From Parcubacteria group bacterium RIFCSPLOWO2_01_FULL_48_18 (GTDB lineage Bacteria; Patescibacteriota; Minisyncoccia; UBA6257; WO2-01-48-18): 64,000 nt of DNA. Made by a program: the position numbers and the translations under genes. Below are positions 2,704-64,000 of this stretch, piece after piece. The notes beneath the pieces were generated by a model. That model was not told where the DNA came from and ran no database searches. It saw nothing but the letters and a program-made list of their open reading frames with translations. The stretch lies in NCBI GenBank assembly GCA_001824435.1, contig MHXH01000017.1, positions 335 to 64,334 of the forward strand, read 5' to 3'. How positions within the stretch are numbered: position 1 is the stretch's first letter; each line of letters opens with the position of its first letter.

Positions 2704-2745
2704 TCATGTCAACAAAAATACGATCGCAAAGATATTGACTAACGT
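2704..2745. repeat. ~42-bp direct repeat, left copy, flanking the PaaX-like gene
   Basis: gtcatgtcaacaaaaatacgatcgcaaagatattgactaacg vs 3345-3388 gtcgtgtcaatgtttttacgatcgcataaatattgactgatg. Confidence 0.5.
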
Positions 2746-3257
2746 CATTTTGTCATTGTTCCCGGATTTTTAACTTCAAAAATGTGAATGTATTTAAGCA
2801 TATTCAGATCATTTAGATTTTTAATGAATTCTTCAGGAAGCAGGCCGTTGCCGACCCAGACGCTTTTTTGTAATAGAGTAAAATCAAGGAGTTTTAATTC
2901 TGTGCGCAGCCAATTTCTGTACCGTTTATACTTTTCGGGAATGTCAAATACGATGATCGTACTACGGGTTTTGTCGTTTGTGGTTTTTTTGAACGAATGT
3001 GCCGGAAGCCTTTTCTGCCGCAGCTGAAGCAATTTTTCTTTTCCTTTTTGTAAAATTCTCCATGCTCCGCTAACTTCTTTTTTTACCAGTCCTTGCTTTT
3101 TCAGATTTGATAATGTCGTTGAAAACGTCGTTTCGGTCGACGGCCGCCCCATTCTTGTATATCGAGGCTTTGTCGGGTAGAGAACGGCGCGCCTAAGGGC
3201 GCCGTAGTTGCCCGGGGAGCTTTCCAGAAACTCTAATATTAATTCGGTAATAGCCAT
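2745..3257 (-). CDS. PaaX-like transcriptional regulator-like protein (wHTH plus PaaX C-terminal-type domain)
   Basis: TIIVFDIPEKYKRYRNWLRTELKLLDFTLLQKSVWVG resembles the PaaX pattern W..lvlysvPe..r..r..LRreL.w.GFg.lq.svW. Confidence 0.45.
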   Translation of the reverse strand: MAITELILEFLESSPGNYGALRRAVLYPTKPRYTRMGRPSTETTFSTTLSNLKKQGLVKKEVSGAWRILQKGKEKLLQLRQKRLPAHSFKKTTNDKTRSTIIVFDIPEKYKRYRNWLRTELKLLDFTLLQKSVWVGNGLLPEEFIKNLNDLNMLKYIHIFEVKNPGTMTK

Positions 3258-3344: not shown

Positions 3345-3388
3345 TCGTGTCAATGTTTTTACGATCGCATAAATATTGACTGATGGTT
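3345..3388. repeat. ~42-bp direct repeat, right copy, flanking the PaaX-like gene
   Basis: See 2704-2745; contains TTGACT. Confidence 0.5.
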
Positions 3389-3529
3389 GTATCAACTTAT
3401 TATTATGCAAATCGGTGGTAGTTAATGCCCTTTGCATAAATGAAGCTCCGCGCGGCAAGGGAAGTCTGACTTCCCAAGCCGCGCGGTATCAAGCGGAATT
3501 CTTACGAAACCCCGTACCATACGCAAGCT

Positions 3530-3715
3530 TAGGTACGGGGCGAAGCAACCCTTCGATCCGTTCGATTAACTCAGGTCATTCAGACTCCCTCGGGCTGTTC
3601 AGTCTCTTCGAGCCTGAGGGCTCTTCAGAGCCTGAACGGCCTGAAGACTTCACAGTACAGTCGAAGGAACTGAGTCCTCTTCGAGCCTGAAGGCTCTTCA
3701 GAGCTCCTCGAGTTC
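3530..3715. repeat. GC-rich dispersed repeat (family R1; ctcgaagag/cctgaagacttcacagtcgaaggaactgagtcct words)
   Basis: Shares long identical words with 6295-6490 (cctcgggctgttcagtc; cctgaagacttcacagt...gtcgaaggaactgagtcctc). Related copies at 5149-5274, 19130-19260 and 28070-28200. Confidence 0.7.
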
Positions 3716-3750
3716 ACCGAATCTGAATAATAATATAAGTTAATTTCAAT

Positions 3751-4227
3751 ATGATGATTAGGAGAAAAAAGTTATTTTTGGGCCTTGCGACATTCGTAGT
3801 CGTTGGGTTGCTGTTGGTAATTGCTGCAATGACCGGTCTTTTCCCATGGCACACTATAGAGCAAGCAAAAAACCAACTCTCGCTCGACTTATTAACGATA
3901 GAGGGTGTCGCTGGTGTGGGAATTGGGGACTGTGAAGGCAAGCCCTGCATCAGCGTATTACTGGAAGAAGATACTCCTGAACTACGACAAAAAATTCCCG
4001 GTGAGTTTAAGGGTTTTAAAGTGATTATAGAAACAACTGGGCCGATCACGATGGTCCCTCCACTGCGAATTTGTGATGCGCAGAATCCATGTCCGGCCGG
4101 GCAAGGATGTTATAAATTTGAAGACGAATCCCAACCGCTCTGCTGGACTCAAAACCCCTGCGAACGATGTGATTCAAAACAATGTCGCCTTGGCGAGTCT
4201 TACCCCATAGAGGTAGTGTGCCAGTAA
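3751..4227 (+). CDS. hypothetical membrane-anchored/secreted cysteine-rich protein
   Basis: N-terminal TM helix (LFLGLATFVVVGLLLVIAAM) and 10 Cys in the C-terminal 70 aa. Confidence 0.5.
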   Translation: MMIRRKKLFLGLATFVVVGLLLVIAAMTGLFPWHTIEQAKNQLSLDLLTIEGVAGVGIGDCEGKPCISVLLEEDTPELRQKIPGEFKGFKVIIETTGPITMVPPLRICDAQNPCPAGQGCYKFEDESQPLCWTQNPCERCDSKQCRLGESYPIEVVCQ

Positions 4228-4245: not shown

Positions 4246-5463
4246 CTATAGGCTAGAATCTGATTGGGTGATTGTTTCTATGAGCGCAACTTCTAGGGGT
4301 ACGATAGGAAACGAACTGAAGTGGATGTGCGGCTGCGCATCAAGGAGCGCTTTGAGCAGTTTGGTCAAAAAGCGGATGTCGGCTCCTTCGGCCTGTTCTC
4401 TAAACCAACGCAGCTCGTCATCGCTGAAGCTTTGTCCGTACACGGCAGCAGCCTCAGGGCTGATAGCGATCGCGAGCAGCCGACGAACGTATCGCATAAG
4501 GTCTTTGTGCAGCGCGGCGATATTGGATGTTTCTTCATCCAAACGGCGAAGGTGCGCCATTATGCCCTTCGCATCTTTTTTTAAAACGGCGTCGACAAGA
4601 GCTTTAAGCTTTGCAATGTTTACTCTGCCGAGCGCCTCTTCGATTGCGGCTCCGTCGATGAGGGCGTAGCCGAACGAAGCAACTTGCTCAAGAAACGATT
4701 CTGCATCTCGAAGCGATCCTTCCGCGGCAAGGGATACAAGTCGTAGGGCTTCGTCGGTGATGGATATTGCCTCTGCGGCAGCGATCTTTTTAAGTTTTTC
4801 CACGATGTGGCTGCTGCGAAGCCTCTTAAAATCGAAACGCTGGGTGCGGGAAACAACGGTAAGCGGCAACTTATCCGGCTCGGTGGTGGCAAGAATAAAC
4901 ATGGCATGGAGCGGAGGCTCCTCCAAAAGTTTTAACAACGCATTGGCCGCGTCTTTCGTAAGCGCATGCGCTTCGTCGACAATAAATACTTTACGGCCGA
5001 GAAAGCTCGGCATCACTACCGCCGCCTCCTTCAAATTTCTAATTTCGTCGATGCCGCGGTTGGAAGCCGCATCAATTTCCACCACGTCAAGCGTCCGCCC
5101 TTCGTCAATTTGTACGCACGCAAGGCAATCATTGCACGGTTCTCCGACGCCTGCGAAGCTTTCATCCCTCAGGACTGAATCCCTTCGGTCTGAGACCTTA
5201 GGGTCGAAGACCTCGGACCGTTCGGCTCTGAGAGTCTCAGGCTCGAAGAGACGAACATCCCCGAGCCGCGTCAGACAATTGACGGCTTTTGCCAAAATCC
5301 GCGCAGCCGTGGTCTTGCCGGTACCGCGGCTGCCGCAAAAAAGATACGCATGCGCAATGCGGCCGGTCGCGGCGGCGTTTTTTAAAATCAGCGTGGTCGC
5401 TTCCTGTCCAATAATATCGGAAAATCGTCTGGGACGATATTTGCGGTATAAGGCAACTGACAT
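4246..5463 (-). CDS. dnaX: DNA polymerase III subunit gamma/tau
   Basis: MSVALYRKYRPRRFSDIIGQE, GSRGTGKTT (Walker A), FIVDEAHAL, TVVSRTQRF. Start at the conserved YRKYRP Met (5461-5463). Confidence 0.85.
   Translation of the reverse strand: MSVALYRKYRPRRFSDIIGQEATTLILKNAAATGRIAHAYLFCGSRGTGKTTAARILAKAVNCLTRLGDVRLFEPETLRAERSEVFDPKVSDRRDSVLRDESFAGVGEPCNDCLACVQIDEGRTLDVVEIDAASNRGIDEIRNLKEAAVVMPSFLGRKVFIVDEAHALTKDAANALLKLLEEPPLHAMFILATTEPDKLPLTVVSRTQRFDFKRLRSSHIVEKLKKIAAAEAISITDEALRLVSLAAEGSLRDAESFLEQVASFGYALIDGAAIEEALGRVNIAKLKALVDAVLKKDAKGIMAHLRRLDEETSNIAALHKDLMRYVRRLLAIAISPEAAAVYGQSFSDDELRWFREQAEGADIRFLTKLLKALLDAQPHIHFSSFPIVPLEVALIETITQSDSSL
5149..5274 (-). repeat. R1 repeat copy inserted in-frame in dnaX (~40-aa insertion in the zinc-module loop)
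   Basis: Between AVNC and GEPCNDCLAC the protein reads LTRLGDVRLFEPETLRAERSEVFDPKVSDRRDSVLRDESFAG. DNA matches the R1 family (ggctctgagagtctcaggctcgaagagacgaa vs 6400-6440). Confidence 0.65.
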
Positions 5464-5572: not shown

Positions 5573-5609
5573 TTGACTATACTATCATACACTGTAGTAT
5601 AGTAGTATA
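5573..5609 (+). promoter_or_regulatory. Sigma70-like promoter (TTGACT-17/18-TAGTAT) overlapped by 34-bp palindromic operator motif, copy 1
   Basis: ttgactatactatcatacactgtagtatagtagtata. Palindrome shared with 6519-6552 and 37064-37099. Confidence 0.5.
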
Positions 5610-5680
5610 GCATAACACCCATTATTTCTATGCCAAAACTATCCAAGCATCGGCCAAGGACAGAGGTAGGAGACGCAATT

Positions 5681-6085
5681 ATGAACCAGCTCTTCCGTTC
5701 ATTGATACGCGTGCAAAACGAGAAGGAAGCGGCTGAATTCTTGAATGATTTTTTTACCCTAACCGAAAAACGAATGCTTGCAAAACGACTGGCTATTGCC
5801 GTTTTATTGCATGCGGGGGCGAACTACAAAGAGATCAACGCGCTGCTGAAGGTATCACACACAACGATCAATCGAGTTTCAAATGCCATTGCGCTGGGCG
5901 GGAAGGCGTATCAAAAAACCGCGGATGACATCATGAATGTTCTCCTGCGCCATCGGGGTTCCGCAACAACGAACAGGCGGGAAGAAAGCAAAGACATGGT
6001 GACGCTTATAAAAGATTTCTTTGACGAATGGGACAATGCGAAACTGCATAGCGTTTATCGCCCGCTCACCAAGGGATCCCGATAA
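5681..6085 (+). CDS. TrpR/YerC-YecD family DNA-binding protein
   Basis: NEKEAAEFLNDFFTLTEKRMLAKRLAIAVLL..GANYKEINALLKVSHTTINRVS matches the Trp-repressor-like fold family. Start may be the upstream Met at 5630. Confidence 0.6.
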   Translation: MNQLFRSLIRVQNEKEAAEFLNDFFTLTEKRMLAKRLAIAVLLHAGANYKEINALLKVSHTTINRVSNAIALGGKAYQKTADDIMNVLLRHRGSATTNRREESKDMVTLIKDFFDEWDNAKLHSVYRPLTKGSR

Positions 6086-6294
6086 AACAAAGAAATTTCA
6101 AAAACAAAAAACTCCAATAGGCTACAGGCCACGGAGCTTCGATATACCCAGAATCGCAATATATTCACCAGTTACAACCCGGAAGCCCCAGTCTTCTCCG
6201 CCAAACAGAACGTCCGAAAACTCCCTTTTTGAGATTTTTGGTATTTCTTTTGGCTTGTTCGCGTCGGCCAAATTGCCAAAATTCGAGTTTTCGG

Positions 6295-6490
6295 ACGGCC
6301 TGAAAGGAGGATCAACTCCTCGAGTTCATCGAATCCCTCGGGCTGTTCAGTCCTGAAGACTTCACAGTCGAAGGAACTGAGTCCTCGGGCCGTTCAGGCT
6401 CTGAGGAGCCCTCAGGCTCGAAGAGACGAATGTCTGGGATTCTCTGAATCGAATGATCTGAGTCTCGGAGTCGAAGACCCCTGGCTGAAG
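6295..6490. repeat. GC-rich dispersed repeat (family R1) copy
   Basis: Long words shared with 3530-3715 and 5149-5274. Confidence 0.7.
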
Positions 6491-6518
6491 GCCGGGTTGT
6501 AACAGGGTTCACTTTTTT

Positions 6519-6552
6519 CTACACTATCATACTACAGTGTATGATAGTGTAG
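6519..6552. promoter_or_regulatory. 34-bp palindromic operator-like motif, copy 2 (ctacactatcatactacagtgtatgatagtgtag)
   Basis: Perfect 14-bp arms, flanked by T6/A5. Near-identical to the reverse complement of copy 3. Confidence 0.5.
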
Positions 6553-6619
6553 AAAAATTAACTTTCGTCCCTCAATTTCTCGATTTATAAATCCCGTATC
6601 GAGAAACTAAACGATTCCG

Positions 6620-8020
6620 TTACTGCAGGACGAGATTGTATTTTTTAAGCGCCCATTCCCATCCCAGCGATACCGCTTCCAGCAACGCCGCCGTATTTGC
6701 TTGCGCCGAAGATATGTCGGCCAGATTCCATATTTCCGCAAAATCCAAATCCCTCCTCGCCAAACTTTCCAAATCAAACAGGTCGTCCTGAAGGGCACGG
6801 AATCGCGCGTCGGTGATGGCGTTATTGAAACGGCTAAACTCGATATACGCCTGCTGGCCGACTGAAAGCGCATCGTCAAGGCTCGCAATCGCCCTACCGT
6901 GGAACCCCGCAAGGTCGCTCGGCGGAACAACTCCCTTCCCCATGCTCACCAGCCAACCCAACGACCGGATCATGCGGCCGAAATCGTCCCAACCGGATGC
7001 ATGGGACGGCCGATGTACGGCTACCGCCGCAAGCGTGTTATGGCCGTTGACAAACTCAAGCTGCGGAGGGTTAAAATCGTCAAACTGGACAAAAAAATCA
7101 TTGAGCGCCGATAAAAAATCAAAGTAGGCAACCGTGAGCTCCGCGTCCTGCTGAATGACGCCGACCTGCTTTATGGCATCTTCAAGAATGCGACTAACGG
7201 TGATATTGCTCTGCGCCGTTTTGAAATTTTCGAGCGAACTGACGAAGGGGTCGTTCGTGGCAAGCGCGACAGAAGACTGATCTTGCGTCAGCGATTTGAG
7301 CTCGCCGAGTTTTCCCGCAAGCGTCACATACGGCCCTTCGGAAACGAACGCTTTAAATCTCCGAAACTCACCCATCCCTTCCCGGGCATACTGCTCTGAT
7401 TCACGCAAGAGCCGTACGAGACCGTCGTGAAAATCTTTCAAGCGGAACGGCACGCGGGCAATTTCCGCTTTCGTCAAAATTCTTCCCGCATTTTCCGTAA
7501 GCAGCTCGTAGGTCTGCCACACGTCTTCATATTGCGCTCCTCCCGAAACGGGATTATTCGCAAGCAATGCGCGATCGGGAGAAACCGATTGAAAAAGATT
7601 CTTCAATTCCGCCAGGAGAGAATAATAATATTCCGATTCGCTGGCAAATTCTTCTTCCAGCGTGTTTTCGGAAGCCAAGTACTGCTGGAAAACAGCCAAT
7701 GACTTACTGTGCAGCTCTTTCAGATCGCCTTTTGACGGTTTGAGCGGGAAAAATTCTTCTGCAGCCCTCTTTGCCGCTTCGCCGATCCGACCCAGGCTCG
7801 CCTCAAGCATGCCGTAAGGATCATACTGGTAATTCTCCTCCCGAGCGCCCGCCACCGCCTGCTCAAACGCATACCACGCCGGATACGCGCGCCGCAAATA
7901 CTGCTGTGGCTGATACTCATTCACATACCACAAGAAACCGCCGAAAACCAAAAAAACAACAAGCAGCACGACCAGCCACCGTACGAGAGGAACGCGAAAT
8001 ATAACGCCAAGAGGGTTCAT
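6620..8020 (-). CDS. hypothetical membrane-anchored protein (466 aa)
   Basis: N-terminal TM helix; no family recognised. Confidence 0.55.
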   Translation of the reverse strand: MNPLGVIFRVPLVRWLVVLLVVFLVFGGFLWYVNEYQPQQYLRRAYPAWYAFEQAVAGAREENYQYDPYGMLEASLGRIGEAAKRAAEEFFPLKPSKGDLKELHSKSLAVFQQYLASENTLEEEFASESEYYYSLLAELKNLFQSVSPDRALLANNPVSGGAQYEDVWQTYELLTENAGRILTKAEIARVPFRLKDFHDGLVRLLRESEQYAREGMGEFRRFKAFVSEGPYVTLAGKLGELKSLTQDQSSVALATNDPFVSSLENFKTAQSNITVSRILEDAIKQVGVIQQDAELTVAYFDFLSALNDFFVQFDDFNPPQLEFVNGHNTLAAVAVHRPSHASGWDDFGRMIRSLGWLVSMGKGVVPPSDLAGFHGRAIASLDDALSVGQQAYIEFSRFNNAITDARFRALQDDLFDLESLARRDLDFAEIWNLADISSAQANTAALLEAVSLGWEWALKKYNLVLQ

Positions 8021-8054
8021 TGCTCTATACTGTAATTATACAATAACGTGCGGG

Positions 8055-8168
8055 ATGTCAAAATGTCGAGATGTCGAGATAACAACATATCGAGACGTCG
8101 AGATATCGAGATGTCAAGACATCGAGATGTCGAGATATCGAGATATCAATATATCGAGATACCGAAAT
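8055..8168. repeat. Tandem array of ~13 octamer units (RTRTCGAG)
   Basis: atgtcgag|atgtcgag|ataacaac|atatcgag|acgtcgag|atatcgag|atgtcaag|acatcgag|atgtcgag|atatcgag|atatcaat|atatcgag|ataccgaa. Lies between the stop of 8170..10197 and the start of 6620..8020. Confidence 0.7.
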
Positions 8169-12369: not shown

Positions 12370-13254
12370 ATGTCAGGCAAAGTCGTGTTTCTACCACAAG
12401 ACGAAACGTGTATTCCTGCCCTCATCGACAGGCCGGAACGGATAAAGGCGCTGCTGATTTCAACCGCCCATCTGCCTACCGGACAACAGTGGGAAGACCA
12501 TAAACCAATTCAGCCGCTCGAAGAGGAAACTGTTTTTTTAAGCCGGCTCCAAAACGCCCGTAACATAACAGCTGAAAGCCTCAGGTGTTTCAAAAAGCCG
12601 TATTGGCTCGATCGCATCGCCGAGCCCTATCTTAGCGTCTTTGCCGGCGGATTCTATTCTTTCATTATTCTTTCAATCTTAGGAAGACTCATACCAAGTA
12701 TTTCCTTATATGATACAAGGCTTGGTCTGGTTTGTTTTTTGGCGAGCGCCCTTATCGGGGCAGGAGTTTTTCAATATCTCTTTAGAAGAAAAAGAAAGAT
12801 TGACATTGAAAGCACAGTTAAACAGCTTAAATTCATCGACGCCCAAGTCCATCCGGACACGCTCGAAGCAATTAATACACGCATCGTACGGCACAATGAG
12901 GCGGTCAAGCTCCTGTGGCGCGTAGCCGCATGGACTGCTGCCAAACAACGAAGCGGGGAAGAAGTTCCTCTTACCGTATCCCGCTATATCGAAGAGCGCT
13001 CACGCGAGCTGGAAGATCGAAGGGGACACCTCATTAAAAATGCAATCGCTATTGCTCGCATCTCCACAGATATTACCGAGGAACTGAACCAGCTACCGCC
13101 CGCCACAGATGAATTGGTCCAAGCTCTCTTTAGCGATGACCTGGAACTGGAACAGATAATAAAAGCGAATATCGAGGCCCACGCGGAGGTGGATCGCCTG
13201 CTTGAAGAAAAAGGACCGTTCTCCCAAATGCCATCACAAATCACTCCTTCATAA
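12370..13254 (+). CDS. hypothetical membrane protein (294 aa)
   Basis: Start at MSGKVVF after an AAGGAG RBS. Upstream TGTATAAT extended -10. Two TM helices then a coiled-coil tail. Confidence 0.5.
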   Translation: MSGKVVFLPQDETCIPALIDRPERIKALLISTAHLPTGQQWEDHKPIQPLEEETVFLSRLQNARNITAESLRCFKKPYWLDRIAEPYLSVFAGGFYSFIILSILGRLIPSISLYDTRLGLVCFLASALIGAGVFQYLFRRKRKIDIESTVKQLKFIDAQVHPDTLEAINTRIVRHNEAVKLLWRVAAWTAAKQRSGEEVPLTVSRYIEERSRELEDRRGHLIKNAIAIARISTDITEELNQLPPATDELVQALFSDDLELEQIIKANIEAHAEVDRLLEEKGPFSQMPSQITPS

Positions 13255-18419: not shown

Positions 18420-18545
18420 AATCTTCTCCCTCGACAAGCTCGGGATCGAAATTACCAGGCGAAGTGCGCTTATCCATTCGCTCCGCTCAGGATGCTGCAT
18501 TTCGCAGCTGGAAAATCTTCGCCTACGGCTTGATTTTACCAGGCG
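18420..18545. repeat. Tandem duplication of a ~80-bp unit (tttcgcagc.g.aaaatcttc...taccaggcgaagtgcgc)
   Basis: Two direct copies downstream of rpsG. Confidence 0.5.
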
Positions 18546-19003
18546 AAGTGCGCAAATGCCCTATTTGCTTCGGCCATGCGGTGCGTATCCAGCTTCTTTT
18601 TGATGGCGACGCCTTCGTTTTTGGATGCGGCAATTATTTCTTCGGCCAGTTTTTCCGCCATCGGCCTCCCTTTCTTGCTTCGCGCGGCCAAAAGAATCCA
18701 GCGGCATGCAAGCATAAATTTCCGGTCACCGCGCACCTCGCGGGGCACCTGGTAATTGGCGCCTCCCACGCGGCGGGAAACAACCTCAAGGACGGGCGAG
18801 GCATTCGCGATGGCCTTATCAAACACCGCGAGCGGCTCTTCATTCGTTTTTTGTTTCACGAGATTCATCGTCCGGTACATCACCCGTTCGGCAACCGATT
18901 TTTCTCCTTTCCGCATCAAATAATTCACGAACCGTGTCATCGCAACGCTGTTGTAGGCCAAATCCGGCTGAAAATCTCTTTTATAATTTTTCTTTTTTCT
19001 CAT
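18536..19003 (-). CDS. rpsG: 30S ribosomal protein S7
   Basis: FVNYLMRKGEKSVAERVMY ... NYQVP ... AHFAW. Confidence 0.9.
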   Translation of the reverse strand: MRKKKNYKRDFQPDLAYNSVAMTRFVNYLMRKGEKSVAERVMYRTMNLVKQKTNEEPLAVFDKAIANASPVLEVVSRRVGGANYQVPREVRGDRKFMLACRWILLAARSKKGRPMAEKLAEEIIAASKNEGVAIKKKLDTHRMAEANRAFAHFAW

Positions 19004-19129
19004 GTGCCAAATTTGTCTAAATTTTTGAGCTCAATTGTAGCGATAAAAATTTAGCTACAAATTTGAGCATCCTGAGCGAAGCGAAGGATTATTTATGGTT
19101 CGCTCCGCTCACTATTTTGTAACAAAACC

Positions 19130-19260
19130 CTTCTATCCCTCGCTACGCTCGGGTCTTCGACCCTGAGAGTCTCCCGTTCAGGGTCTGAGACCCCTCAGGT
19201 CGTTCTGACTCTGAGAGTCATTAGACTCGATGAGGTCGAACGACAGACTCGAAGAGATAA
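19130..19260. repeat. GC-rich dispersed repeat (R1-related) in the rpsL-rpsG spacer
   Basis: ctgagagtc/ctcagg/ctcgaagag words, as in the other R1 copies. Confidence 0.55.
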
Positions 19261-23898: not shown

Positions 23899-23935
23899 AG
23901 AACTAGAATCTGGAATCTGGAAGTGATTATTTATG
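23895..23935. repeat. Heptamer array (AGAATCT/AATCTGG type) directly upstream of the aspS start
   Basis: gaactag|aatctgg|aatctgg|aag. Confidence 0.55.
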
Positions 23936-28038: not shown

Positions 28039-28069
28039 TCGGGCTATTTTAAATTTAAATGGAAACCCT

Positions 28070-28200
28070 TCGACTCGCTTCGCTCACTCAGACCTTCGGC
28101 TCTGAGGCTCAGGCTCGAAGAGGTATTGTTTCGTAACCGCATTCATCCCTCGGGACTGAGGACCTCGGGACGAACGTCCTCGCCGCAGAGCGGCAAGGTA
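28070..28200. repeat. GC-rich dispersed repeat (R1-related)
   Basis: ggctctgaggctcaggctcgaagag ... ccctcgggactgagg. Confidence 0.55.
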
Positions 28201-35493: not shown

Positions 35494-35593
35494 CATGATT
35501 GGAATATAGAATTTAGAATCTAGAATTTGGAATACCAGCTTCCATGTTCTCAACTTCGGTAAATCCCAGATTCCAGATTCTAAATTCTAGATT
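35494..35593. repeat. Inverted heptamer arrays (tagaat x4 ... cagatt/ctagatt x5) between the zwf stop and the gnd start
   Basis: atagaat|ttagaat|ctagaat|ttggaat ... cccagat|tccagat|tctaaat|tctagat|tctaaac. Confidence 0.65.
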
Positions 35594-37030
35594 CTAAACA
35601 ATAGGTCCTGCGCTTCCCGGCTCATACACCAGAAGCGGCACTTCATTATTTTTCCACCCATCAAGGACGCTGTCAATGAATTTCCAACTTGCCATCACCT
35701 CTTCCGTGCTCGCAAATAACGTCTGATCTCCAGAGATACAATCAAGCAGAATTTTCTCGTATGCATCTACGAGTTCGCCGTTTTTCTCGATGCCAGAATA
35801 GTTGAGCGCCAGGGGGCGCTCTTCAAGTTCCATGGCGACGCCCGGGCGCTTTGTCCAAAACGATACCGCAACCTCCTGATTAGGCTGAAGCTGGAAATAC
35901 AACACATTCTGCACGTGGCGGTCCGGCGGACACAAACAAGGATCGACATGTTTGAACGTAACAAATGTCTCTACTACGGATCGATTGAGCCGCTTGCCGC
36001 TTTCAAGATTAAAAGGAACTCCTTCCCAACGAGGATTATCAATAAAAGCTGCCAAGCGAAAATATGTTTCTGTCTTCGAGTCTGGTGACACGCCACCCTC
36101 TTGGCGATAACCGATATATTGCGCCCTTCGCGTATCTCTTTTAAGCTGATCGCGCGAAACAGGTCGAAGCGCATACAGTGCGGCTGCCCGCGCTTTTCTG
36201 ATCTCGCTTGCGACAAATACGGCAGGCCGCTCCATGGCAATGAGAGCGAGCATTTGCAGCATATGATTTTGGCCCACGTCACGAAGCGTTCCGACACGAT
36301 CGTAAAATGCTCCTCTTTCTTCGACTCCGGCTTCTTCAAGCATTTTGATTTCAACCTTTTCGATGGCGCGCCCGTCCCACGAAGATTCAAAAATAGAATT
36401 TGAAAATCTCAATGCCAGGATATTTTGCACCGATTCCTTGGCCAAGTAATGATCGATGCGAAAAACTTGTTCCTCCTTGAACAATTTCCCGAGCATGGCG
36501 TCGAGCCGTTCTGCGGTTTTCAAATCGCTGCCGAACGGTTTTTCCACCAACACGCGAGTCCATCCGGTCTCATCGCTGCACGGCTTCGTTAAACCGGAAT
36601 TCGCCAGATGAGTAAAAATCTCCTCATAGAATTGCGGCGGGACGGCAAGATAAAATAATTTGTTTGAACACATTCCCCATGCTTCGTCTATCGACTCAAG
36701 GTTTCTCGCAAGCGCCGCATAACTGTTCGAATCGGAAAAATTACCTCGTTGATATCTCCACAACTCGGCAAAAGATTCAAAGTCCTTTTTTACGATCCCC
36801 GCCATCCCACCCGAAAAATTTACGGCCATGGAGCGAAAACCATTATCGCCCAGATCCTTCCGCGCAAAGCCGACAATCGCGCATTTATCGGGAAGCCAAC
36901 CGCGATTCCATAAATGAAACAATGCCGGAGTCAATTTTTTCTTCATGAGATCTCCGGTAGCGCCGAATATGGTAAGAACGGTTGGGGCGTTAAAATTTTT
37001 CTTATGGGGCATGTTCATATTATAATTCAT
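35594..37030 (-). CDS. zwf: glucose-6-phosphate 1-dehydrogenase
   Basis: IFGATGDL, RIDHYLAKE, EKPFG. Confidence 0.9.
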   Translation of the reverse strand: MNYNMNMPHKKNFNAPTVLTIFGATGDLMKKKLTPALFHLWNRGWLPDKCAIVGFARKDLGDNGFRSMAVNFSGGMAGIVKKDFESFAELWRYQRGNFSDSNSYAALARNLESIDEAWGMCSNKLFYLAVPPQFYEEIFTHLANSGLTKPCSDETGWTRVLVEKPFGSDLKTAERLDAMLGKLFKEEQVFRIDHYLAKESVQNILALRFSNSIFESSWDGRAIEKVEIKMLEEAGVEERGAFYDRVGTLRDVGQNHMLQMLALIAMERPAVFVASEIRKARAAALYALRPVSRDQLKRDTRRAQYIGYRQEGGVSPDSKTETYFRLAAFIDNPRWEGVPFNLESGKRLNRSVVETFVTFKHVDPCLCPPDRHVQNVLYFQLQPNQEVAVSFWTKRPGVAMELEERPLALNYSGIEKNGELVDAYEKILLDCISGDQTLFASTEEVMASWKFIDSVLDGWKNNEVPLLVYEPGSAGPIV

Positions 37031-37063: not shown

Positions 37064-37099
37064 CTACATACTATCATACACTGTAGTATGATAGTGTAG
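37064..37099. promoter_or_regulatory. 34-bp palindromic operator-like motif, copy 3, upstream of zwf-gnd
   Basis: ctacatactatcatacactgtagtatgatagtgtag. Reverse complement equals copy 2 apart from a 3-nt indel. Confidence 0.5.
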
Positions 37100-37168
37100 C
37101 CGAATAATCTTCGTATGGATACACAGAGGATAGGCGGAGATGTGTAATACACAAACAGAAATTGAATA

Positions 37169-58469: not shown

Positions 58470-58579
58470 CAACATCAAATCAATAATATATGCTCAACAA
58501 TGCAAAACAGCGGAATGTCCGCTGTTTTCGCTTCTAAAAACCTTTTTCATAATCCCGCACTAATTTTCTGCAATAGTAT

Positions 58580-58695
58580 CCCGGCGAATCCTACTTTCCC
58601 CGGCCACCGAAGCAGCGAGTATCATCAGAGTTTGACGCTTTCACTTCCGTGTTCGGAATGAGAACGGGTGGGTCACGCCAAACTAAATCACCGGG
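58580..58695 (-). rRNA. rrf: 5S ribosomal RNA
   Basis: Minus strand reads cccggtgatttagtttggcgtgacccacccgttctcattccgaacacggaagtgaaagcg...gattcgccggg. Conserved CCCACC..CCGAAC.CGGAAGU core and a terminal helix. Confidence 0.7.
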
Positions 58696-58812
58696 AAGCT
58701 GCTGCAGAAAATTTAGTGCGGGAGGGAGGGATGGGACACACATGACTTAACCGCTGGGAAGTCCAAAATTTTAAGCGGGGCGGGGTCGGAATAAAATGAG
58801 GTGATACCCGCC

Positions 58813-59112
58813 TCAAACTCCATATTCTGCCTGCCTCAAGCTTAAAAGCTCCTCCTCCGCTTCTCTTTTCTTCTTCGATAGTTGATCTAACAGATCGCTT
58901 TCCGCGTCAGTAGCTATTTGAACAAGCTTAAATTCCGTATCCGATATGTCTCCGAATAGGGATTCAAGATTTTGTTTATTCCCTGCAAGCCGCGACAGGT
59001 CGGCAGCAATCAGCTCACGTGCACGCGCAACGACTTGAGCCAATTCTTCGCTTACATATTCTTCATCCGGCAAATGGGCCGGGCGATGTGGTTCACGCAT
59101 TTCTCGACTCAT
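58813..59112 (-). CDS. hypothetical coiled-coil protein (99 aa) in the 23S-5S spacer
   Basis: ORF track only; unusual location. Confidence 0.3.
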   Translation of the reverse strand: MSREMREPHRPAHLPDEEYVSEELAQVVARARELIAADLSRLAGNKQNLESLFGDISDTEFKLVQIATDAESDLLDQLSKKKREAEEELLSLRQAEYGV

Positions 59113-59811
59113 ATATATTTCTTTCTATAGCCACACAAAGTGCAGAAATTCGAACAACAAAGTATTTCCATATATTTCTATAATATTTCCACATATTTCT
59201 GAAATACATTGAAATATGCTTCGCGAAACAAATAGAAATATCCTGTTTTGTATTTGCGCTTCCGTTGCTCCGCAACGGTTGGCTGACGCATTCTCCGACT
59301 GAAACGTCAGGGCTGCCCTTCAATAAATTCAGGGCTAAGTTTCTACGGGATTATTTATTCCGATTCCCCTAATTCACGCTCTCGATCATCCAGTCGAAGC
59401 AATTCATCGTCTATTTCATCTTTCCTTTCCCGGATATCTCTTAACCTTTGGTTATCTCCATCTATGCCAAGGTTTAGTTCAAAATCTTTCATCCGTTGTA
59501 ATTCATTCTCCAGCTCCTCCTTTTTTTACGAATCTCCAACGACCTTTCAGCAATTGTTTGTTTCTCTATTTTTTTGATTTTTCCATGTTAGTAAAACAAA
59601 TAACCTCCCTCGGTATTATATCCTATCAAACCCAGGTTATAAGTTCAACCTCGGGGTTGCTCTGATGAGCAATAGGGCTTCACCGAAGTGTCAATTGTCA
59701 ATTATTACCTCCGATGGGTGTGGGGATTAATTTTTTTGGATTATTAGTACTCCTCGGCTGAAATCCTTACGGATCTTACACCTGGAGCCTATCAGCCAGC
59801 GCTCCGCACTG

Positions 59812-59945
59812 GAATTTCTAATTCCTAATTTCTAATGACTAATCAAATCCAGATTTCGAAATCCCAATAACCAAAATATTAGAAATTGGCCATTTGGGCA
59901 TTGAAACATTGATTAGGAATTAGGTCAATTAGAAATTAGACATTT
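59812..59945. repeat. AT-rich heptamer-array element (aatttct/attagaa units) inserted in the 3'-terminal variable helix of 23S
   Basis: Shares attaggtcaattagaaatt with the copy at 63303-63418. rRNA homology resumes on both sides. Confidence 0.6.
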
Positions 59946-60013
59946 CCGGTGCGAAGCACTGGTTTTTACGTGGTAGTCTTCCACGATCCTCAAACGATAC
60001 CTTATCTTAGGGG

Positions 60014-60047
<34 letters not shown>

Positions 60048-60482
60048 CGTCCGAACATAGCTACCCGGCGTTCCACCTGGTGGCAGAGCCGGCAGACCAG
60101 AGGTTCGTTCATCCCGGTCCTCTCGTCACATAATCACATATCACTATGTGTGCAGACTATATCTTTACCCGTCCAGTCTTCGCCGGTTGGCGAATGGCAG
60201 GTTTGGGTATCGGCGTATTATAGATGTTCAAAAACATCTATCTCCCGGGCACATAAACTTATGTGCTTCGGTCAGTCGTTACGGGGTCAACCCTTCGATA
60301 AACTCAGGGTAACTTCCCACGGTATTAACTCTAGTTCGTTTATCCAAAAGTTTTGGACCGCAAAACTTTTACAAACTAAAGCCTTCACCGTTATTAGCCG
60401 AATTGTCATCTCGCATTACTGCGAGAAGTAGCAATTTTCGTTTACTAGGGACGACTCCCTTCAAGTATCAACGCCTGCGGCA

Positions 60483-60793
<311 letters not shown>

Positions 60794-60872
60794 TTTCACG
60801 TACCCTTTTAAATGGCGAACAGCCATACGCTTCCCACCTTCTCCAGCGGGGCGCTAGGGTGAGCCGACATCG

Positions 60873-61713
60873 TACATTGTTCCGTTATTACTAACAGTGT
60901 GGACTATGTCTTCATCCAATTATTTTTACTTTCAAGTAATGGCGCTGACGTATTAGTCAAATCTTTAAAAATTTGACTCTTCCGAATAAATCGGAAAGTC
61001 TCTACGGGGTTATAACTCAATTTTGTACTTCATTGATGGAATAACTGCATCAGCCAAAAGTTCTCTAAGCCTGGATAAAGATGATTTTTTAAAACGTAAT
61101 CTAAAATAGTTTTTGTCTCTATTTAGGCTAGTTTCTAAATTCATCTTTCTTAAAACTGCGATCAACCTTTTCTGATCACTGACATCGAACTGCTGAGAGT
61201 TCAGATACACATCAGAAGATCTACATCTGCTCCCATCGTCCATATACCAAACCGCTAGACTGACCACATCTAAATTGAGTTCATCCGGAATGATTTTTTT
61301 ACCATTCCGATAAAACATTCTATAAAGTTTAGATAGGCCTTCAAGCTGCCTGGTGTAGAAACGATAGGCAATTCTGTTTCCATTTCCCTTTCTTATTTTA
61401 GGAGCTGAGGCTGAAACATCTTTCAATAACCGATATTTCCAATCAACATATTCTTTTTGATTGTAAGAATGATTGATTTCTAGCAATGCGTTCTTGCTCC
61501 TCGGTAATATACGCAAGTAACCATCTCCCAAAATTGTTCCAATGATCAATGATTTTTGGAATTGAGTTAAACTTCCCACGGCATTGTCCATACGATAATC
61601 GTATCATATGGAGTCCGCCGTTATAAGTCAGATTTTTATTCTTCGAGTACCGAACACATCGTTTCAGTACCGAAAGGTATGACATTGCTGTCATAGCACC
61701 CCGATTTAAGTTA
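60873..61713 (-). mobile_element. Group I intron in 23S near E. coli position ~2500 (peptidyl-transferase loop), carrying a LAGLIDADG homing endonuclease gene
   Basis: Exons ...ggctcggcacct | intron | cgatgtcggctc... match GGCACCU|CGAUGUCGGCUC. Exact splice points are uncertain by 1-3 nt. Confidence 0.65.
61010..61591 (-). CDS. LAGLIDADG homing endonuclease (intron-encoded)
   Basis: Two LAGLIDADG motifs: LIIGTILGDGYL and LAVWYMDDGS. Confidence 0.9.
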   Translation of the reverse strand: MDNAVGSLTQFQKSLIIGTILGDGYLRILPRSKNALLEINHSYNQKEYVDWKYRLLKDVSASAPKIRKGNGNRIAYRFYTRQLEGLSKLYRMFYRNGKKIIPDELNLDVVSLAVWYMDDGSRCRSSDVYLNSQQFDVSDQKRLIAVLRKMNLETSLNRDKNYFRLRFKKSSLSRLRELLADAVIPSMKYKIEL

Positions 61714-61940
61714 AGGTGCCGAGCCTGGCCGTCGATAGGAACTCTCGGGCCAGACTAGCCTGTTATCCCTAGAGTAACTTTTATCCGGTGTCTCCGGCCT
61801 TCCTATGAAGAGCCGTCGGGTCACTAAGTTCTGCTTTCGCACCAGCGCGACTTGTAGGTCTTGCTGTTAAGCCGGCTTTTGCCTTTACGCGTCCAGCTCG
61901 ATTTCCATCCGAGCTAAGCCGACCTTAATAAACTCCTCCG

Positions 61941-62573
61941 TTACTTTTTAGGCAATGTGTTCCCTAATTTGTACTTCAGTGACGGTATGACGTACGAACC
62001 AATAAGTTCTGCGAATTTTTTGGCCGAATCGCTATAAATATAAATTCGCCATCTGTCGTATTGCTTATGTAGTCCAATCTCAACGTCAAACTTTTTCTGA
62101 AGCACGTCCTTTATTAACTCAAGATCTTTCTTGCCATATCCGAGTGCATGAATAATGTAGGTTTTATGCTTTTCGGATTTGTAAGATCCATCATCCATAA
62201 ACCATATCGCGAGTGCCAATGGATCGAGCAACTTCGAAATCAATTTCGGAATTCGTTTCTTCCCGCCCTCATAAAACTGCTGGGCGTAAAAACGAAACGC
62301 CCCAAGAGAATATGTAGAAAACCAGTAGCTGTCTTGTGCTCTCTTTCGCATTTTAACTTGCGGAGTTGTACGAACAAGATTCTTAAATTCCTCATACAAC
62401 CAATTTACATATTCTTTTTGTTTCAAGGAATGTTCTACTTTAAGACGGTATGTTCGACTGCGATTGCTTGTTTCCAAATGACCATCGCCTAAAAGCAATC
62501 CAACAAGAATAGATCTCTGTTTTTTATTGAGTTTCAATTTCTTTTTGAAACTTTCAATCTCGTTTGATCTCAT
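61941..62573 (-). CDS. LAGLIDADG homing endonuclease (intron-encoded); ORF runs ~13 nt into the 3' exon
   Basis: ILVGLLLGDGHL and LAIWFMDDGS. The last codons and the stop lie in exon sequence cctaaaaagtaa. Confidence 0.9.
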   Translation of the reverse strand: MRSNEIESFKKKLKLNKKQRSILVGLLLGDGHLETSNRSRTYRLKVEHSLKQKEYVNWLYEEFKNLVRTTPQVKMRKRAQDSYWFSTYSLGAFRFYAQQFYEGGKKRIPKLISKLLDPLALAIWFMDDGSYKSEKHKTYIIHALGYGKKDLELIKDVLQKKFDVEIGLHKQYDRWRIYIYSDSAKKFAELIGSYVIPSLKYKLGNTLPKK

Positions 62574-62888
62574 TTCATTAGGTTCGCCGCGCGTATCGCA
62601 CGGCCTGCATATCGCTATGCAGTTCGGACCATATCATACAGCTACCGAAATAGCCGTTCTGGCTTGTGGTCTCTGAGGTGTTCCGGGCACAGAACATGCG
62701 CCACGGTTCCCTGCTGATTGTCCGCCGCTCCGATTTTAATCGGAAACCGCTCCAAGATTTTCACCTTCTCGACTAGAAGGTACTTGAAGACACCACGGAT
62801 GTTCCAGCATATACACCAGATTTTCACCGCCGCTTGGCGGTGTCCCCCTGTAGTTCCACGGAGGTGGAACTACGTTTAAGGAAAACGC
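61954..62888 (-). mobile_element. Group I intron in 23S near E. coli position ~2260 (P-loop side of domain V) with 3'-located homing endonuclease ORF
   Basis: Exons ggggcgttttcct | intron | cctaaaaagtaacggaggag match GGGGCGGUCUCCU|CCUAAAGAGUAACGGAGGAG. 5' exon ends in U and the intron ends in G. About 315 nt of ribozyme-like sequence precedes the ORF. Confidence 0.7.
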
Positions 62889-63302
62889 CCCATTTAAACT
62901 GCCCACCAGGCACTGTCCAAACTGGGTTTATGGAAAACCAATTCCCAATTCGTTAGAGCTTACAGTTTTAAAGACGGGTGTTTCATTGGCGGCTCCAGTC
63001 CGCCCGAAAGCAGGCCTTCAAAGCCTCCCCGCTACGCTACGCATTAAAACCATAAGACCAATACCAAGCTACAGTAAAGCTTCTAGGGTCTTTTCGTCTT
63101 GCCGCAGGTACCCCGCGTCTTCACGGGGATCGCATTTTCACCGAGCTCCTCGTTGAGACAGTTGCCCAGTCGTTACGCCTTTCGTGCGCTCCGGAACTTA
63201 CCCGGAAAGGAATTGCGCTACCTTAGAACGATTATAGTTATCGCTGACATTGACGAGGGCTTACAACAGTGAGCCGTACACACCTCACTAAAGTTCGGTG
63301 CT

Positions 63303-63418
63303 CAAATTTCTAAATCCTAACTTCTAATTTCTAAATAAATCCCAGTAACCGAATTCCGAAATTGGGTATTGGAAATTTATTAGAAATTAGGTCAATTAGA
63401 AATTGGTCATTCAAGTAT
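63303..63418. repeat. AT-rich heptamer-array element inserted in 23S helix 68 region
   Basis: The insert splits helix strands cactaaggcgag / ctttagtgagg. Homologous to 59812-59945. Confidence 0.6.
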
Positions 63419-64000
63419 CTCGCCTTAGTGAGATGCATACGACCCCCATCGTTTAACCTTCTCGCATCGGTCAGGCGTCACCCCCTATACATCCTCTTAC
63501 GAGTTAGCAGGGAGCTGTGTTTTTGATAAACAGTCGCCAGGCAAACTTTCGCTGCGTCCCTCGCACCTTGCGGTGCTCGGGAAGGCCTTATCGCTAACTT
63601 ACGGCCGCTTTTTTGCCGAGTTCCTTAACGAGGACTCACTCGTTCTCCTTGGGCTACTCGCCCCGCCCACCAGTGTCGGATTGCGGTACGGAACCAATAC
63701 TATTAACTCTAGAAGTTTTTCTTGGATCGCTCTTCAGCCGGATTGCCCTGGTAAAAACCAAAACTTTCGTCTGCTTTCGGAATTTGCCATAAAAGACAGT
63801 TGAACGGATTTGCCTGTCCAACATTCCTTCAAGCAAACAGCGTCAAACCATTAAGACGCCCGGCCTTATTTCAACCGTCGCTCCATCGAAATAGTATCGG
63901 TGGGACGGAATATTAACCGTCTGTCCATCACCTTCGGCTTTCGCCATCGGCTTAGGACCGCCTCACCCGTGGTTGATTGCCATTGCCACGGAAACCTTGG

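Follow-up and report, generated by a model that had tools for sequence, protein, structure and literature searches.

An in-frame copy of a short hairpin-forming DNA repeat in dnaX of a Patescibacteria genome, and its relatives in other genes and phyla

The gene dnaX, which encodes DNA polymerase III gamma/tau, contains in the genome of Parcubacteria group bacterium RIFCSPLOWO2_01_FULL_48_18 (contig MHXH01000017.1) a segment that resembles DNA lying between genes of the same contig. This raises the question of what such a repeat is, how it came to stand within an essential gene, and whether it is translated. The whole stretch analysed, called the window here, is 64,000 nucleotides (nt) long. 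An earlier note, made from its letters alone, had described a GC-rich repeat of about 120 bp, named R1, which is dispersed between genes and adds about 40 amino acids (aa) to DnaX. The repeat is real and its copies share DNA, but it is not a single 120-bp element: an alignment of the copies shows that R1 is a mosaic of shorter modules around a discrete unit of 30–37 nt. The segment in dnaX is probably one copy of a hairpin-forming DNA repeat, selfish and non-autonomous, which is translated and which a permissive loop of the protein tolerates. The note missed the mosaic nature, the actual size of the insert (31 aa), the spread across phyla and the recurrence in frame in other housekeeping genes of the candidate phyla radiation (CPR).

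The host of the window belongs to the Patescibacteria (CPR), of the Paceibacteria/Parcubacteria type. Its DnaX has its best homologues in Paceibacterota, Wolfebacteria, Liptonbacteria and groups like these, and no other DnaX comes closer than 53% identity. The Walker A, DEAH and SRT motifs of the protein are intact, all four cysteines of the zinc module are kept (C63, C110, C113, C116), and the match to the E. coli gamma/tau structures (1XXI/1JR3) has an E value of 8e-58. The gene and the parts of its insert are the following.

4246–5463, minus strand: dnaX (DNA polymerase III gamma/tau), 405 aa, start codon ATG at 5463, Pfam domains present
5169–5261, read on the minus strand as residues 69–99, DVRLFEPETLRAERSEVFDPKVSDRRDSVLR: exact in-frame insertion of 93 nt, from the orthologue alignment
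5163–5168, plus strand: left copy of the 6-nt direct repeat CATCCC, read from the sequence; the copies are 93 nt apart
5256–5261, plus strand: right copy of CATCCC, read from the sequence
5219–5250, plus strand: well-conserved core unit of the insert, CGTTCGGCTCTGAGAGTCTCAGGCTCGAAGAG; pattern match 5225–5250, nhmmer E 1.5e-10 with a profile that also included window copies
5182–5210, plus strand: second, degenerate unit of the insert, CCTTCGGTCTGAGACCTTAGGGTCGAAGA; nhmmer E 0.13, and the zigzag scan

The insert was defined by alignment to 16 and then 61 orthologues, and loop lengths were counted in the 120 best homologues. It adds 31 residues between the invariant N62-C63 and E108-P109-C110-N111, i.e. 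between Cys1 and Cys2 of the zinc module. The position given in the earlier note, in frame between the NC and the PC..C zinc residues, is thus correct, while the length has to be lowered from about 40 aa to 31 aa (93 nt) when close orthologues are used for comparison. Against E. coli gamma, residues 67–106 stand in place of residues 68–69 (40 versus 2), between Cys64 and Cys73. The spacing from NC to [ED]PC is 13 residues in 108 of the 120 homologues and 10–11 in six, and longer loops exist in only three, namely the DnaX of the window (43 residues), P0024 (40) and P0109 (25); 117 of the 120 have no extension at the insert site. Orthologues that carry the same segment were therefore not found, as 114 of them have 10–13 residues and the two other long ones are unrelated in sequence. 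When the 93 nt are deleted in silico, the protein reads ...NCLTRLGDESFAGVGEPCNDC... / ...AKAVNCLTRLGDESFAGVGEPCNDCLAC..., which has the length of NCExRxxDxxFxxxGEPCNxC, the consensus of the orthologues, and its D and F in place.

Because of the 6-nt flanking repeat, 5163–5255 are equally valid as boundaries of the insertion. The CATCCC pair may be a target duplication or microhomology; words like ATCCCTC also occur at the left end of the other R1 copies compared (6326, 28143). The insert is made up of two units and end modules, and its degenerate unit retains a complementarity of three segments, GGTC/GACC/GGTC (from 5187). Of the six frames of the 93 nt, just two lack a stop, and dnaX reads one of these. 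The insert is no intein: it has 31 aa, starts with DVR and ends with VLR, as opposed to at least about 130 aa, a Cys/Ser/Thr nucleophile and a C-terminal HN followed by Cys/Ser/Thr.

A structure model by AlphaFold2 from a 62-sequence alignment has a mean predicted local distance difference test (pLDDT) score of 83, with values below 50 only at residues 71–99 and of 82–95 in the adjoining blocks. This fits a disordered, solvent-exposed surface loop, which the earlier note had proposed to look for by modelling. P0024 and P0109, both CPR proteins, bear independent insertions of 12 and 27 residues with unrelated sequence in the same loop, and this marks the Cys1-Cys2 loop of DnaX as a recurrent permissive site.

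The insert has relatives elsewhere in the window. The core pattern GCTCTGAN{1,8}TCAGGCTCGAAGAG matches five times, at 3604–3631(-), 3677–3704(-), 5225–5250(+), 6398–6425(+) and 28099–28122(+), and not once in 100 dinucleotide-preserving shuffles. By blastn, the dnaX segment is 74% identical over 95 nt to 3592–3678 (E 9e-9), 88% over 51 nt to 6380–6430 (E 9e-9) and 87% over 39 nt to 28087–28122 (E 2e-5). A profile made from the sequences of many genomes recognises five good copies in the window (nhmmer E about 1e-10) as well as degenerate ones at 5182–5210 and 19154–19199. The DNA similarity among the copies is significant by all three statistics. Three of the copies that had been placed outside dnaX (3530–3715, 6295–6490 and 28070–28200) are borne out, and the fourth (19130–19260) is only weakly similar. 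All four sites are intergenic, as had been claimed, by the list of open reading frames (ORFs) as well as by gene calls. These features and their neighbours are the following.

3560–3725, minus strand: mosaic copy, intergenic, between the divergent genes 2745–3257(-) and 3751–4227(+)
6310–6480, plus strand: mosaic copy, intergenic, between the convergent genes 5630–6085(+) and 6620–8020(-), with a long-form unit at 6389–6425(+)
28068–28122, plus strand: short-form unit with the CPR-typical left extension CCCTTCGAC...CTCAG; unit at 28093–28122, CCTTCGGCTCTGAGGCTCAGGCTCGAAGAG; nhmmer E 2.7e-11
28139–28178, plus strand: module like the ends of R1, TTCATCCCTCGGGACTGAGGACCTCGGGACGAACGTCC, 90% identical over 21 nt to the left end of the dnaX insert (5158–5178)
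19140–19256, plus strand: degenerate relative made of the same words, including a GACTC/GAGTC/GACTC zigzag from 19207
6171–6503, plus strand: 333-nt element with perfect 12-nt inverted repeats, GTTACAACCCGG / CCGGGTTGTAAC, at its ends; encloses the copy at 6310–6480

The copy at 3560–3725 combines a 37-nt long-form unit at 3604–3640(-) with a headless unit at 3677–3704(-), and the left extension of the copy at 28068–28122 recurs in many CPR loci. The weak similarity of 19140–19256 amounts to 68% over 88 nt to 6341–6425 by blastn (E 7e-4) and to nhmmer E values of 0.02–0.14. Beyond dnaX, the 64-kb window has no further copy inside a gene; a candidate at 12516–12585 was dismissed on inspection. 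The repeat does yield spurious ORFs, as the earlier note had said: those with LFEPEGSSEPERPED lie at 3376–3690(+) and 6312–6512(-), and Pfam assigns their peptides to no family. Nesting of elements is common, as with the copy at 6310–6480 inside the 333-nt element. A similar element is present at 2670–2929 of L133, a non-syntenic metagenome contig with 90% identity, where a 20-nt block replaces the 95-nt palindromic block (6211–6305). [quoted passage not shown]

The unit itself has two forms. The short form, (G)CCTTCGGCTCTGAGGCTCAGGCTCGAAGAG, has 30–31 nt and the consensus (G)CCTTCG-GCTCTGAG-GCTCAG-GCTCGAAGAG. The long form, (G)CCGTTCAGGCTCTGA(A/G)GAGCC(C/T)TCAGGCTCGAAGAG, has 36–37 nt and the consensus (G)CCGTTCAG-GCTCTGA(A/G)GAGCC(C/T)TCAG-GCTCGAAGAG. 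Its boundaries are sharp: in 119 instances listed, from a GTDB sample picked by a pattern that fixes most stem positions, the seven bases not fixed by that pattern (GCCTTCG) are 83–97% conserved, and conservation is at background at positions -8 and +1. The unit consists of alternately complementary segments with short loops between them, and its two 15-nt ends match as inverted repeats at 10 of 15 positions. Variants shift all segments jointly (GGCTC/GAGCC/GGCTC; GACTC/GAGTC/GACTC at 19207; GGTC/GACC/GGTC at 5187, in dnaX), which indicates that the hairpin potential is maintained. Four of the six frames of the unit are stop-free, giving the recurring peptides AFGSEAQARR, PSALRLRLEE, LFEPEPQSRR and SSSLSLRAEG.

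Rfam has no match at any window copy at the gathering threshold, nor in five further loci at E values up to 1. A hammerhead-like reading of CUGAGGA...CGAAG was rejected on inspection because neither core position 9 nor the CGAAAC box agrees with it and Rfam is without a match, and a role as intrinsic terminator was rejected because the window copies have no T-tail. No description of the unit came up in the literature, whether sought by subject, by nucleotide string (DNA or RNA) or by peptide, with incomplete coverage that makes an earlier description possible. The PARCELs (PMC2996958) are tandem protein repeats of 25 residues and are unrelated to the unit.

The dnaX insert has counterparts in other genes. 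Among the loci listed with a GC content below 56%, units lie in long ORFs in 45 cases and between genes in 46, and inside genes both orientations are found. Host ORFs confirmed intact by Pfam encode MurB (L003), AtpD (L013), CysS (L035), DNA polymerase I (L038), IF-2 (L081), the CCA/poly(A) polymerase (L092), PriA (L106) and LigA (L142); an ADP-forming acyl-CoA synthetase (L134), UvrD/PcrA (L070) and an IS5-like transposase (L153) were likewise confirmed by Pfam as hosts. The CPR genes with an in-frame unit are murB, atpD, cysS, polA, infB, cca, priA, ligA and uvrD/pcrA. Since the unit stands in frame in other intact housekeeping genes, the dnaX case is one instance of a general phenomenon. 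The copy in the CCA-enzyme gene of a Curtissbacteria genome (L092, 2289–2340) lies between direct repeats of 14–16 nt (TTGAAAGTGGAAAG) with a period of 44 nt, which is no multiple of three; the ORF and its Pfam domain are intact.

A scan of GTDB with one genome per species gives at least 119 loci, assigned to taxa by record title. Those listed comprise 37 from Patescibacteria (Parcubacteria, Microgenomates, Saccharibacteria, Doudnabacteria and others), 63 from Planctomycetota (Tepidisphaerales, Phycisphaerales, Planctomycetales and Pirellulales, including contigs of 1.4–5 Mb with several copies each), two from Zixibacteria, two from Binatia, eight from metagenome-assembled genomes (MAGs) labelled Gammaproteobacteria, six without label and one from Methylosinus (L058), which is a chance match inside a uvrD-like gene. 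The GC content of the loci listed ranges from 0.33 to 0.68, and the commonest 31-mer among them is identical between CPR and Planctomycetota. Metagenomes scanned for the long form add 42 loci, while a scan of viral contigs for the unit gave no match. The composite at 6310–6480 is 97% identical over 105 nt to a Parcubacteria MAG (L004) and 90% over 207 nt to L133, and the contexts of these two loci show no synteny with the window.

The unit often lies in or next to a second widespread repeat, CCCTCTCC...GGAGAGGG(TTAGG)GTGAGG (L054, L067, L090, L125, L135 and many Planctomycetota loci). As its position within that repeat varies, it seems to have entered a second hairpin family several times independently. 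In a Nomurabacteria contig (L030), positions 1517–1645 match the adenosylcobalamin (AdoCbl) riboswitch with 49.2 bits, the gathering threshold being 50, about 80 nt upstream of a unit copy. In one locus, L159, the unit connects the sequence that lies left of it in L142 (ligA) with the sequence that lies right of it in L122; this contig is a chimera of the assembly or else arose by recombination at the repeat.

From sequence comparison, the unit appears to move. The 36-nt unit at 3605–3640 interrupts the sequence gctgttcagt|cctgaagac, which is unbroken at 6342–6360; this is a clean nested insertion without duplication, and the break is at the exact centre of a TTCAG/CTGAA dyad. The unit also lies in the tetraloop of another unit variant (L140) and in the loop of a 9-bp hairpin (L141), and complementary flanks of at least 7 bp are present in 20% of copies as compared with 2–5% of controls. 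Clean nested insertions at dyad centres suggest extruded or single-stranded hairpin loops as the target. Direct repeats at the flanks are more frequent than in controls (7.2% of copies versus 0.15% of controls reach a score of 8 or more). They are found in only about 10% of copies, with lengths of 6–16 nt, and mostly within tandem arrays of heptads or octads, in which a clean insertion of 30 nt accounts for the recurring period of 44 nt. As the repeats are this rare and variable and clean insertions free of duplication exist, a fixed target-site duplication was rejected.

The neighbourhood of the copies was searched for a source of mobility. The ORFs flanking 147 intergenic copies belong to 189 Pfam families, none of which occurs in more than three ORFs, and transposases, reverse transcriptases and HUH enzymes are not conspicuous among them; these neighbours include no gene for a REP-associated tyrosine transposase (RAYT, a Y1 HUH enzyme), nor is any transposase family enriched that would indicate a related autonomous insertion sequence with matching ends. 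A full-length parent element between inverted pairs of units was rejected, as the pair of L070 encloses uvrD/pcrA and that of L026 ordinary genes. A non-autonomous mobile or recombinogenic hairpin module that aims at single-stranded or cruciform DNA is favoured.

According to the reading given at the outset, a 93-nt mosaic with two copies of the palindromic unit would have landed in the variable Cys1-Cys2 loop of DnaX. Its persistence at this place would have three causes: the length is divisible by three, the frame in use is stop-free, and the loop accepts extra residues. The insert would be read as a charged, disordered surface loop of 31 residues with DnaX staying functional, and the intergenic copies would be the same kind of element in neutral DNA. 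From length, open frame and tolerant loop together it follows that the insert is most likely translated rather than removed. The unit would also be selfish rather than functional. Several points weigh against this reading. An empty site from a close relative is lacking, the insertion event having to be inferred from distant orthologues because the nearest other DnaX is only 53% identical; neither is a presence/absence polymorphism seen in other assemblies from the same population (99.97–100% identical). No mobilising enzyme, consistent target duplication or autonomous parent element was found in the neighbours of the 147 copies, the comparison of flanks and the inverted unit pairs, respectively. 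The folding energies of the unit are modestly better than those of shuffles (z -0.5 to -2.8), with several alternative folds. That a 31-nt sequence is nearly identical across phyla could stem from functional constraint, not recent spread, and the kept complementarity (GGCTC/GAGCC, GACTC/GAGTC, GGTC/GACC) shows selection or conversion that preserves a hairpin, as for a functional RNA or DNA motif.

These last points lead to an explanation in which the unit is a functional nucleic-acid motif under selection, such as a protein-binding hairpin, a signal for RNA stability or processing, or a site of recombination or replication, with the copies in genes tolerated or co-opted. The near-identity across phyla holds at GC contents of 33–68%, the segments keep their complementarity by concerted changes, intergenic copies are enriched about 5–10 times relative to coding density in CPR loci (46 intergenic versus 45 in ORFs), and 29 of 45 in-gene copies are co-oriented with the gene. 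Such a motif is nonetheless unlikely, since Rfam is without a match, the missing T-tail leaves no intrinsic terminator, and the position relative to genes varies, with all four flank arrangements represented (19, 14, 7 and 6 cases) and both orientations inside genes. Moreover, the neighbouring genes are unrelated (189 families, none in more than 3 of 147), copies are nested in other copies and in a transposase gene, and copy number is uneven between genomes. The insert could instead go untranslated, either cut out of the mRNA like a very small intron or passed over by the ribosome like the byp GC-cluster elements of yeast mitochondria, and the frame would then be irrelevant. The unit is GC-rich and hairpin-forming as byp elements are, and the copy of L092 with its 14-nt flanking repeat has the period of 44 nt. 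This is very improbable because in all in-gene copies examined the reading frame crosses the unit without a stop, by one of the four open frames that the unit offers, the dnaX insert has exactly 93 nt in one of only two open frames, and Rfam shows no ribozyme or intron signature; a gene-splitting copy with a stop or frameshift was not met, in a search for such cases that was not systematic.

It is harder still to maintain that the DnaX loop grew by 31 residues in this lineage alone and that the likeness of these residues to intergenic repeats is coincidence or low complexity. Two other orthologues do have unrelated expansions at the same loop; yet the DNA matches to intergenic copies are far above chance by blastn, by the pattern against shuffles and by nhmmer, the insert has two recognisable units with the exact 21-nt core of the family, and the same unit stands in a dozen unrelated genes of other genomes. 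This explanation is effectively refuted. The chance that the insertion is a misassembly caused by the repeat is negligible. Repeats of this family do appear to yield chimeric contigs, with L159 as the example, but dnaX with its insert and flanks agrees at 99.97–100% identity in three independent assemblies (two from ENA, one from Logan), which argues against an assembly artefact, and the ORF is intact with flanks colinear with those of orthologues. The translated copy of a selfish repeat remains the preferred reading. Going further, it is possible, but doubtful, that the unit represents an undescribed class of ultra-small mobile DNA: a bare hairpin module with GAA-triloop mini-hairpins at both 3' ends (CTC-GAA-GAG, and GCC-GAA-GGC on the other strand) and no dedicated linked transposase, which inserts preferentially at extruded or single-stranded hairpin apexes and in coding DNA and has recently crossed phyla (Patescibacteria, Planctomycetota, Zixibacteria and Binatia).

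The earlier note had likened R1 to the Rickettsia palindromic elements (RPEs), and this comparison is apt. Ogata et al. are said to have reported in 2000 that RPEs insert in frame into protein-coding genes. RPEs are interspersed palindromic repeats that occur both between genes and in frame within them, e.g. RPE-7 as an insert of 63–84 bp in pheT (PMC1779305). Like RPE-1 to RPE-8, the unit occurs in intergenic DNA and in frame in essential genes, without an associated transposase and tolerated at permissive protein sites. The RPEs are, however, 100–150 bp long, AT-rich and confined to Rickettsiales, whereas the unit has 30–37 nt, is GC-rich, builds mosaics and occurs in several phyla; it is set apart from them by host (here Patescibacteria), length, composition and phylum range.

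A second comparison is offered by sequences of the repetitive extragenic palindromic (REP) type and the elements built from them, the bacterial interspersed mosaic elements (BIMEs) and REPINs, which are mobilised by RAYT (TnpA-REP) transposases. The unit shares with these its nature as an imperfect palindrome of 20–40 nt with many copies, mosaics, nested clusters and hairpins. REPs are almost wholly extragenic and species-specific and usually have a GTAG or CGTC head (PMC3733652). In contrast, the head of the unit is (G)CCTTCG or (G)CC(G)TTC, about half of the CPR copies lie in ORFs, the distribution is cross-phylum, and no RAYT-like gene is found among the neighbours of the 147 copies.

MITEs such as QMITE1/2 of Coxiella can fuse occasionally in frame with ORFs and have variable direct repeats, of 7–11 nt for QMITE2 (PMC5896051). 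With these and the Correia elements of Neisseria the unit has in common that it is non-autonomous, with terminal inverted symmetry, occasional in-frame fusions and variable direct repeats. MITEs differ in their length of 100–400 bp, their defined terminal inverted repeats and a usually fixed target duplication, while the unit is essentially two imperfect 15-nt arms, with most copies lacking a duplication and some inserted cleanly at a hairpin apex. The GC clusters and byp elements of yeast mitochondria are GC-rich palindromic mobile modules of about 30–50 nt that have no known transposase, nest and enter coding sequences, and byp is skipped by the ribosome. They resemble the unit in size, as GC-rich palindromes, in having no known transposase and in inserting into one another and into coding sequences. 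They are eukaryotic, organellar and skipped by the ribosome, whereas the frame of the unit is always preserved in genes, which points to translation. In functional terms the unit acts like an RPE, and it resembles the in-frame MITEs of Coxiella. It is a member of neither family: host, size (30–37 nt versus 100–150 or 150–400 bp), composition and conservation across phyla set it apart.

Other repeats and an interrupted ribosomal RNA (rRNA) region were noticed in the window. Inverted repeats of 33 nt at 18477–18509 and 19053–19085 (TTCGCTCCGCTCAGGATGCTG... / ...CATCCTGAGCGAAGCGAA), 82% complementary and 543 nt apart, bracket the ORF 18536–19003; their words CTCAGG and CGAAG are also those of the unit, and they may be a further family of hairpin repeats. 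Three copies of an AT-rich, near-perfect palindrome, ACTATCATACACTGTAGTATGATAGTGTAG, lie at 5577–5615, 6514–6557 and 37070–37111; two of them are in divergent promoter regions, and one of these two adjoins a gene of the TrpR family (5630–6085). The palindrome has promoter-like as well as terminator-like scores and could act as an operator or as a terminator for both directions. Intergenic tandem arrays of 7–8-nt units (TCGAGATA twelve times, GAATCTG, CTAGATT, GAACCTG and CTACAAG) are found at 8046–8165, 1707–1769 and 2036–2093, and also at 23906, 25794, 29390, 35502–35598 and 43954; in Planctomycetota loci, arrays of heptads like these stand beside many copies of the unit. The rRNA region at 58578–64000 is interrupted. 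The match to the large-subunit (LSU) rRNA at 62697–64000 (-) spans model positions 1345–2925 in about 1300 nt, the 5S gene is a further 4 kb away, and between them lie two sub-threshold matches to group I introns (60134–60453 and 60533–60807) and two ORFs for LAGLIDADG homing endonucleases (61010–61591 and 61941–62573), a layout typical for intron-bearing rRNA genes of CPR.

Units of this kind matter for the analysis of genomes, as they generate spurious ORFs with the peptides LFEPEGSSEPERP, AFGSEAQARR, PSALRLRLEE and SSSLSLRAEG, cause chimeric contigs in metagenome assemblies (for which L159 is a warning), and make lineage-specific insertions seem more numerous than they are in protein alignments and phylogenomic markers. 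The feature is apparently undescribed: a tiny, sharply bounded core that is common to distant phyla. In-frame selfish DNA in essential genes has so far been a curiosity of Rickettsia. Its occurrence in CPR would mean that parasitic DNA colonises even extremely streamlined genomes, whose core proteins gain new disordered loops (dnaX, atpD, cysS, polA, infB, ligA, priA, murB and cca). This leads to the questions of what mobilises a hairpin of 30 nt and how the unit crosses phyla. If the unit is indeed ultra-small mobile DNA, it could be used to trace how DNA is exchanged between CPR episymbionts and the hosts or neighbours of these, and it could be a recurrent source of new surface loops in the essential proteins of reduced genomes.

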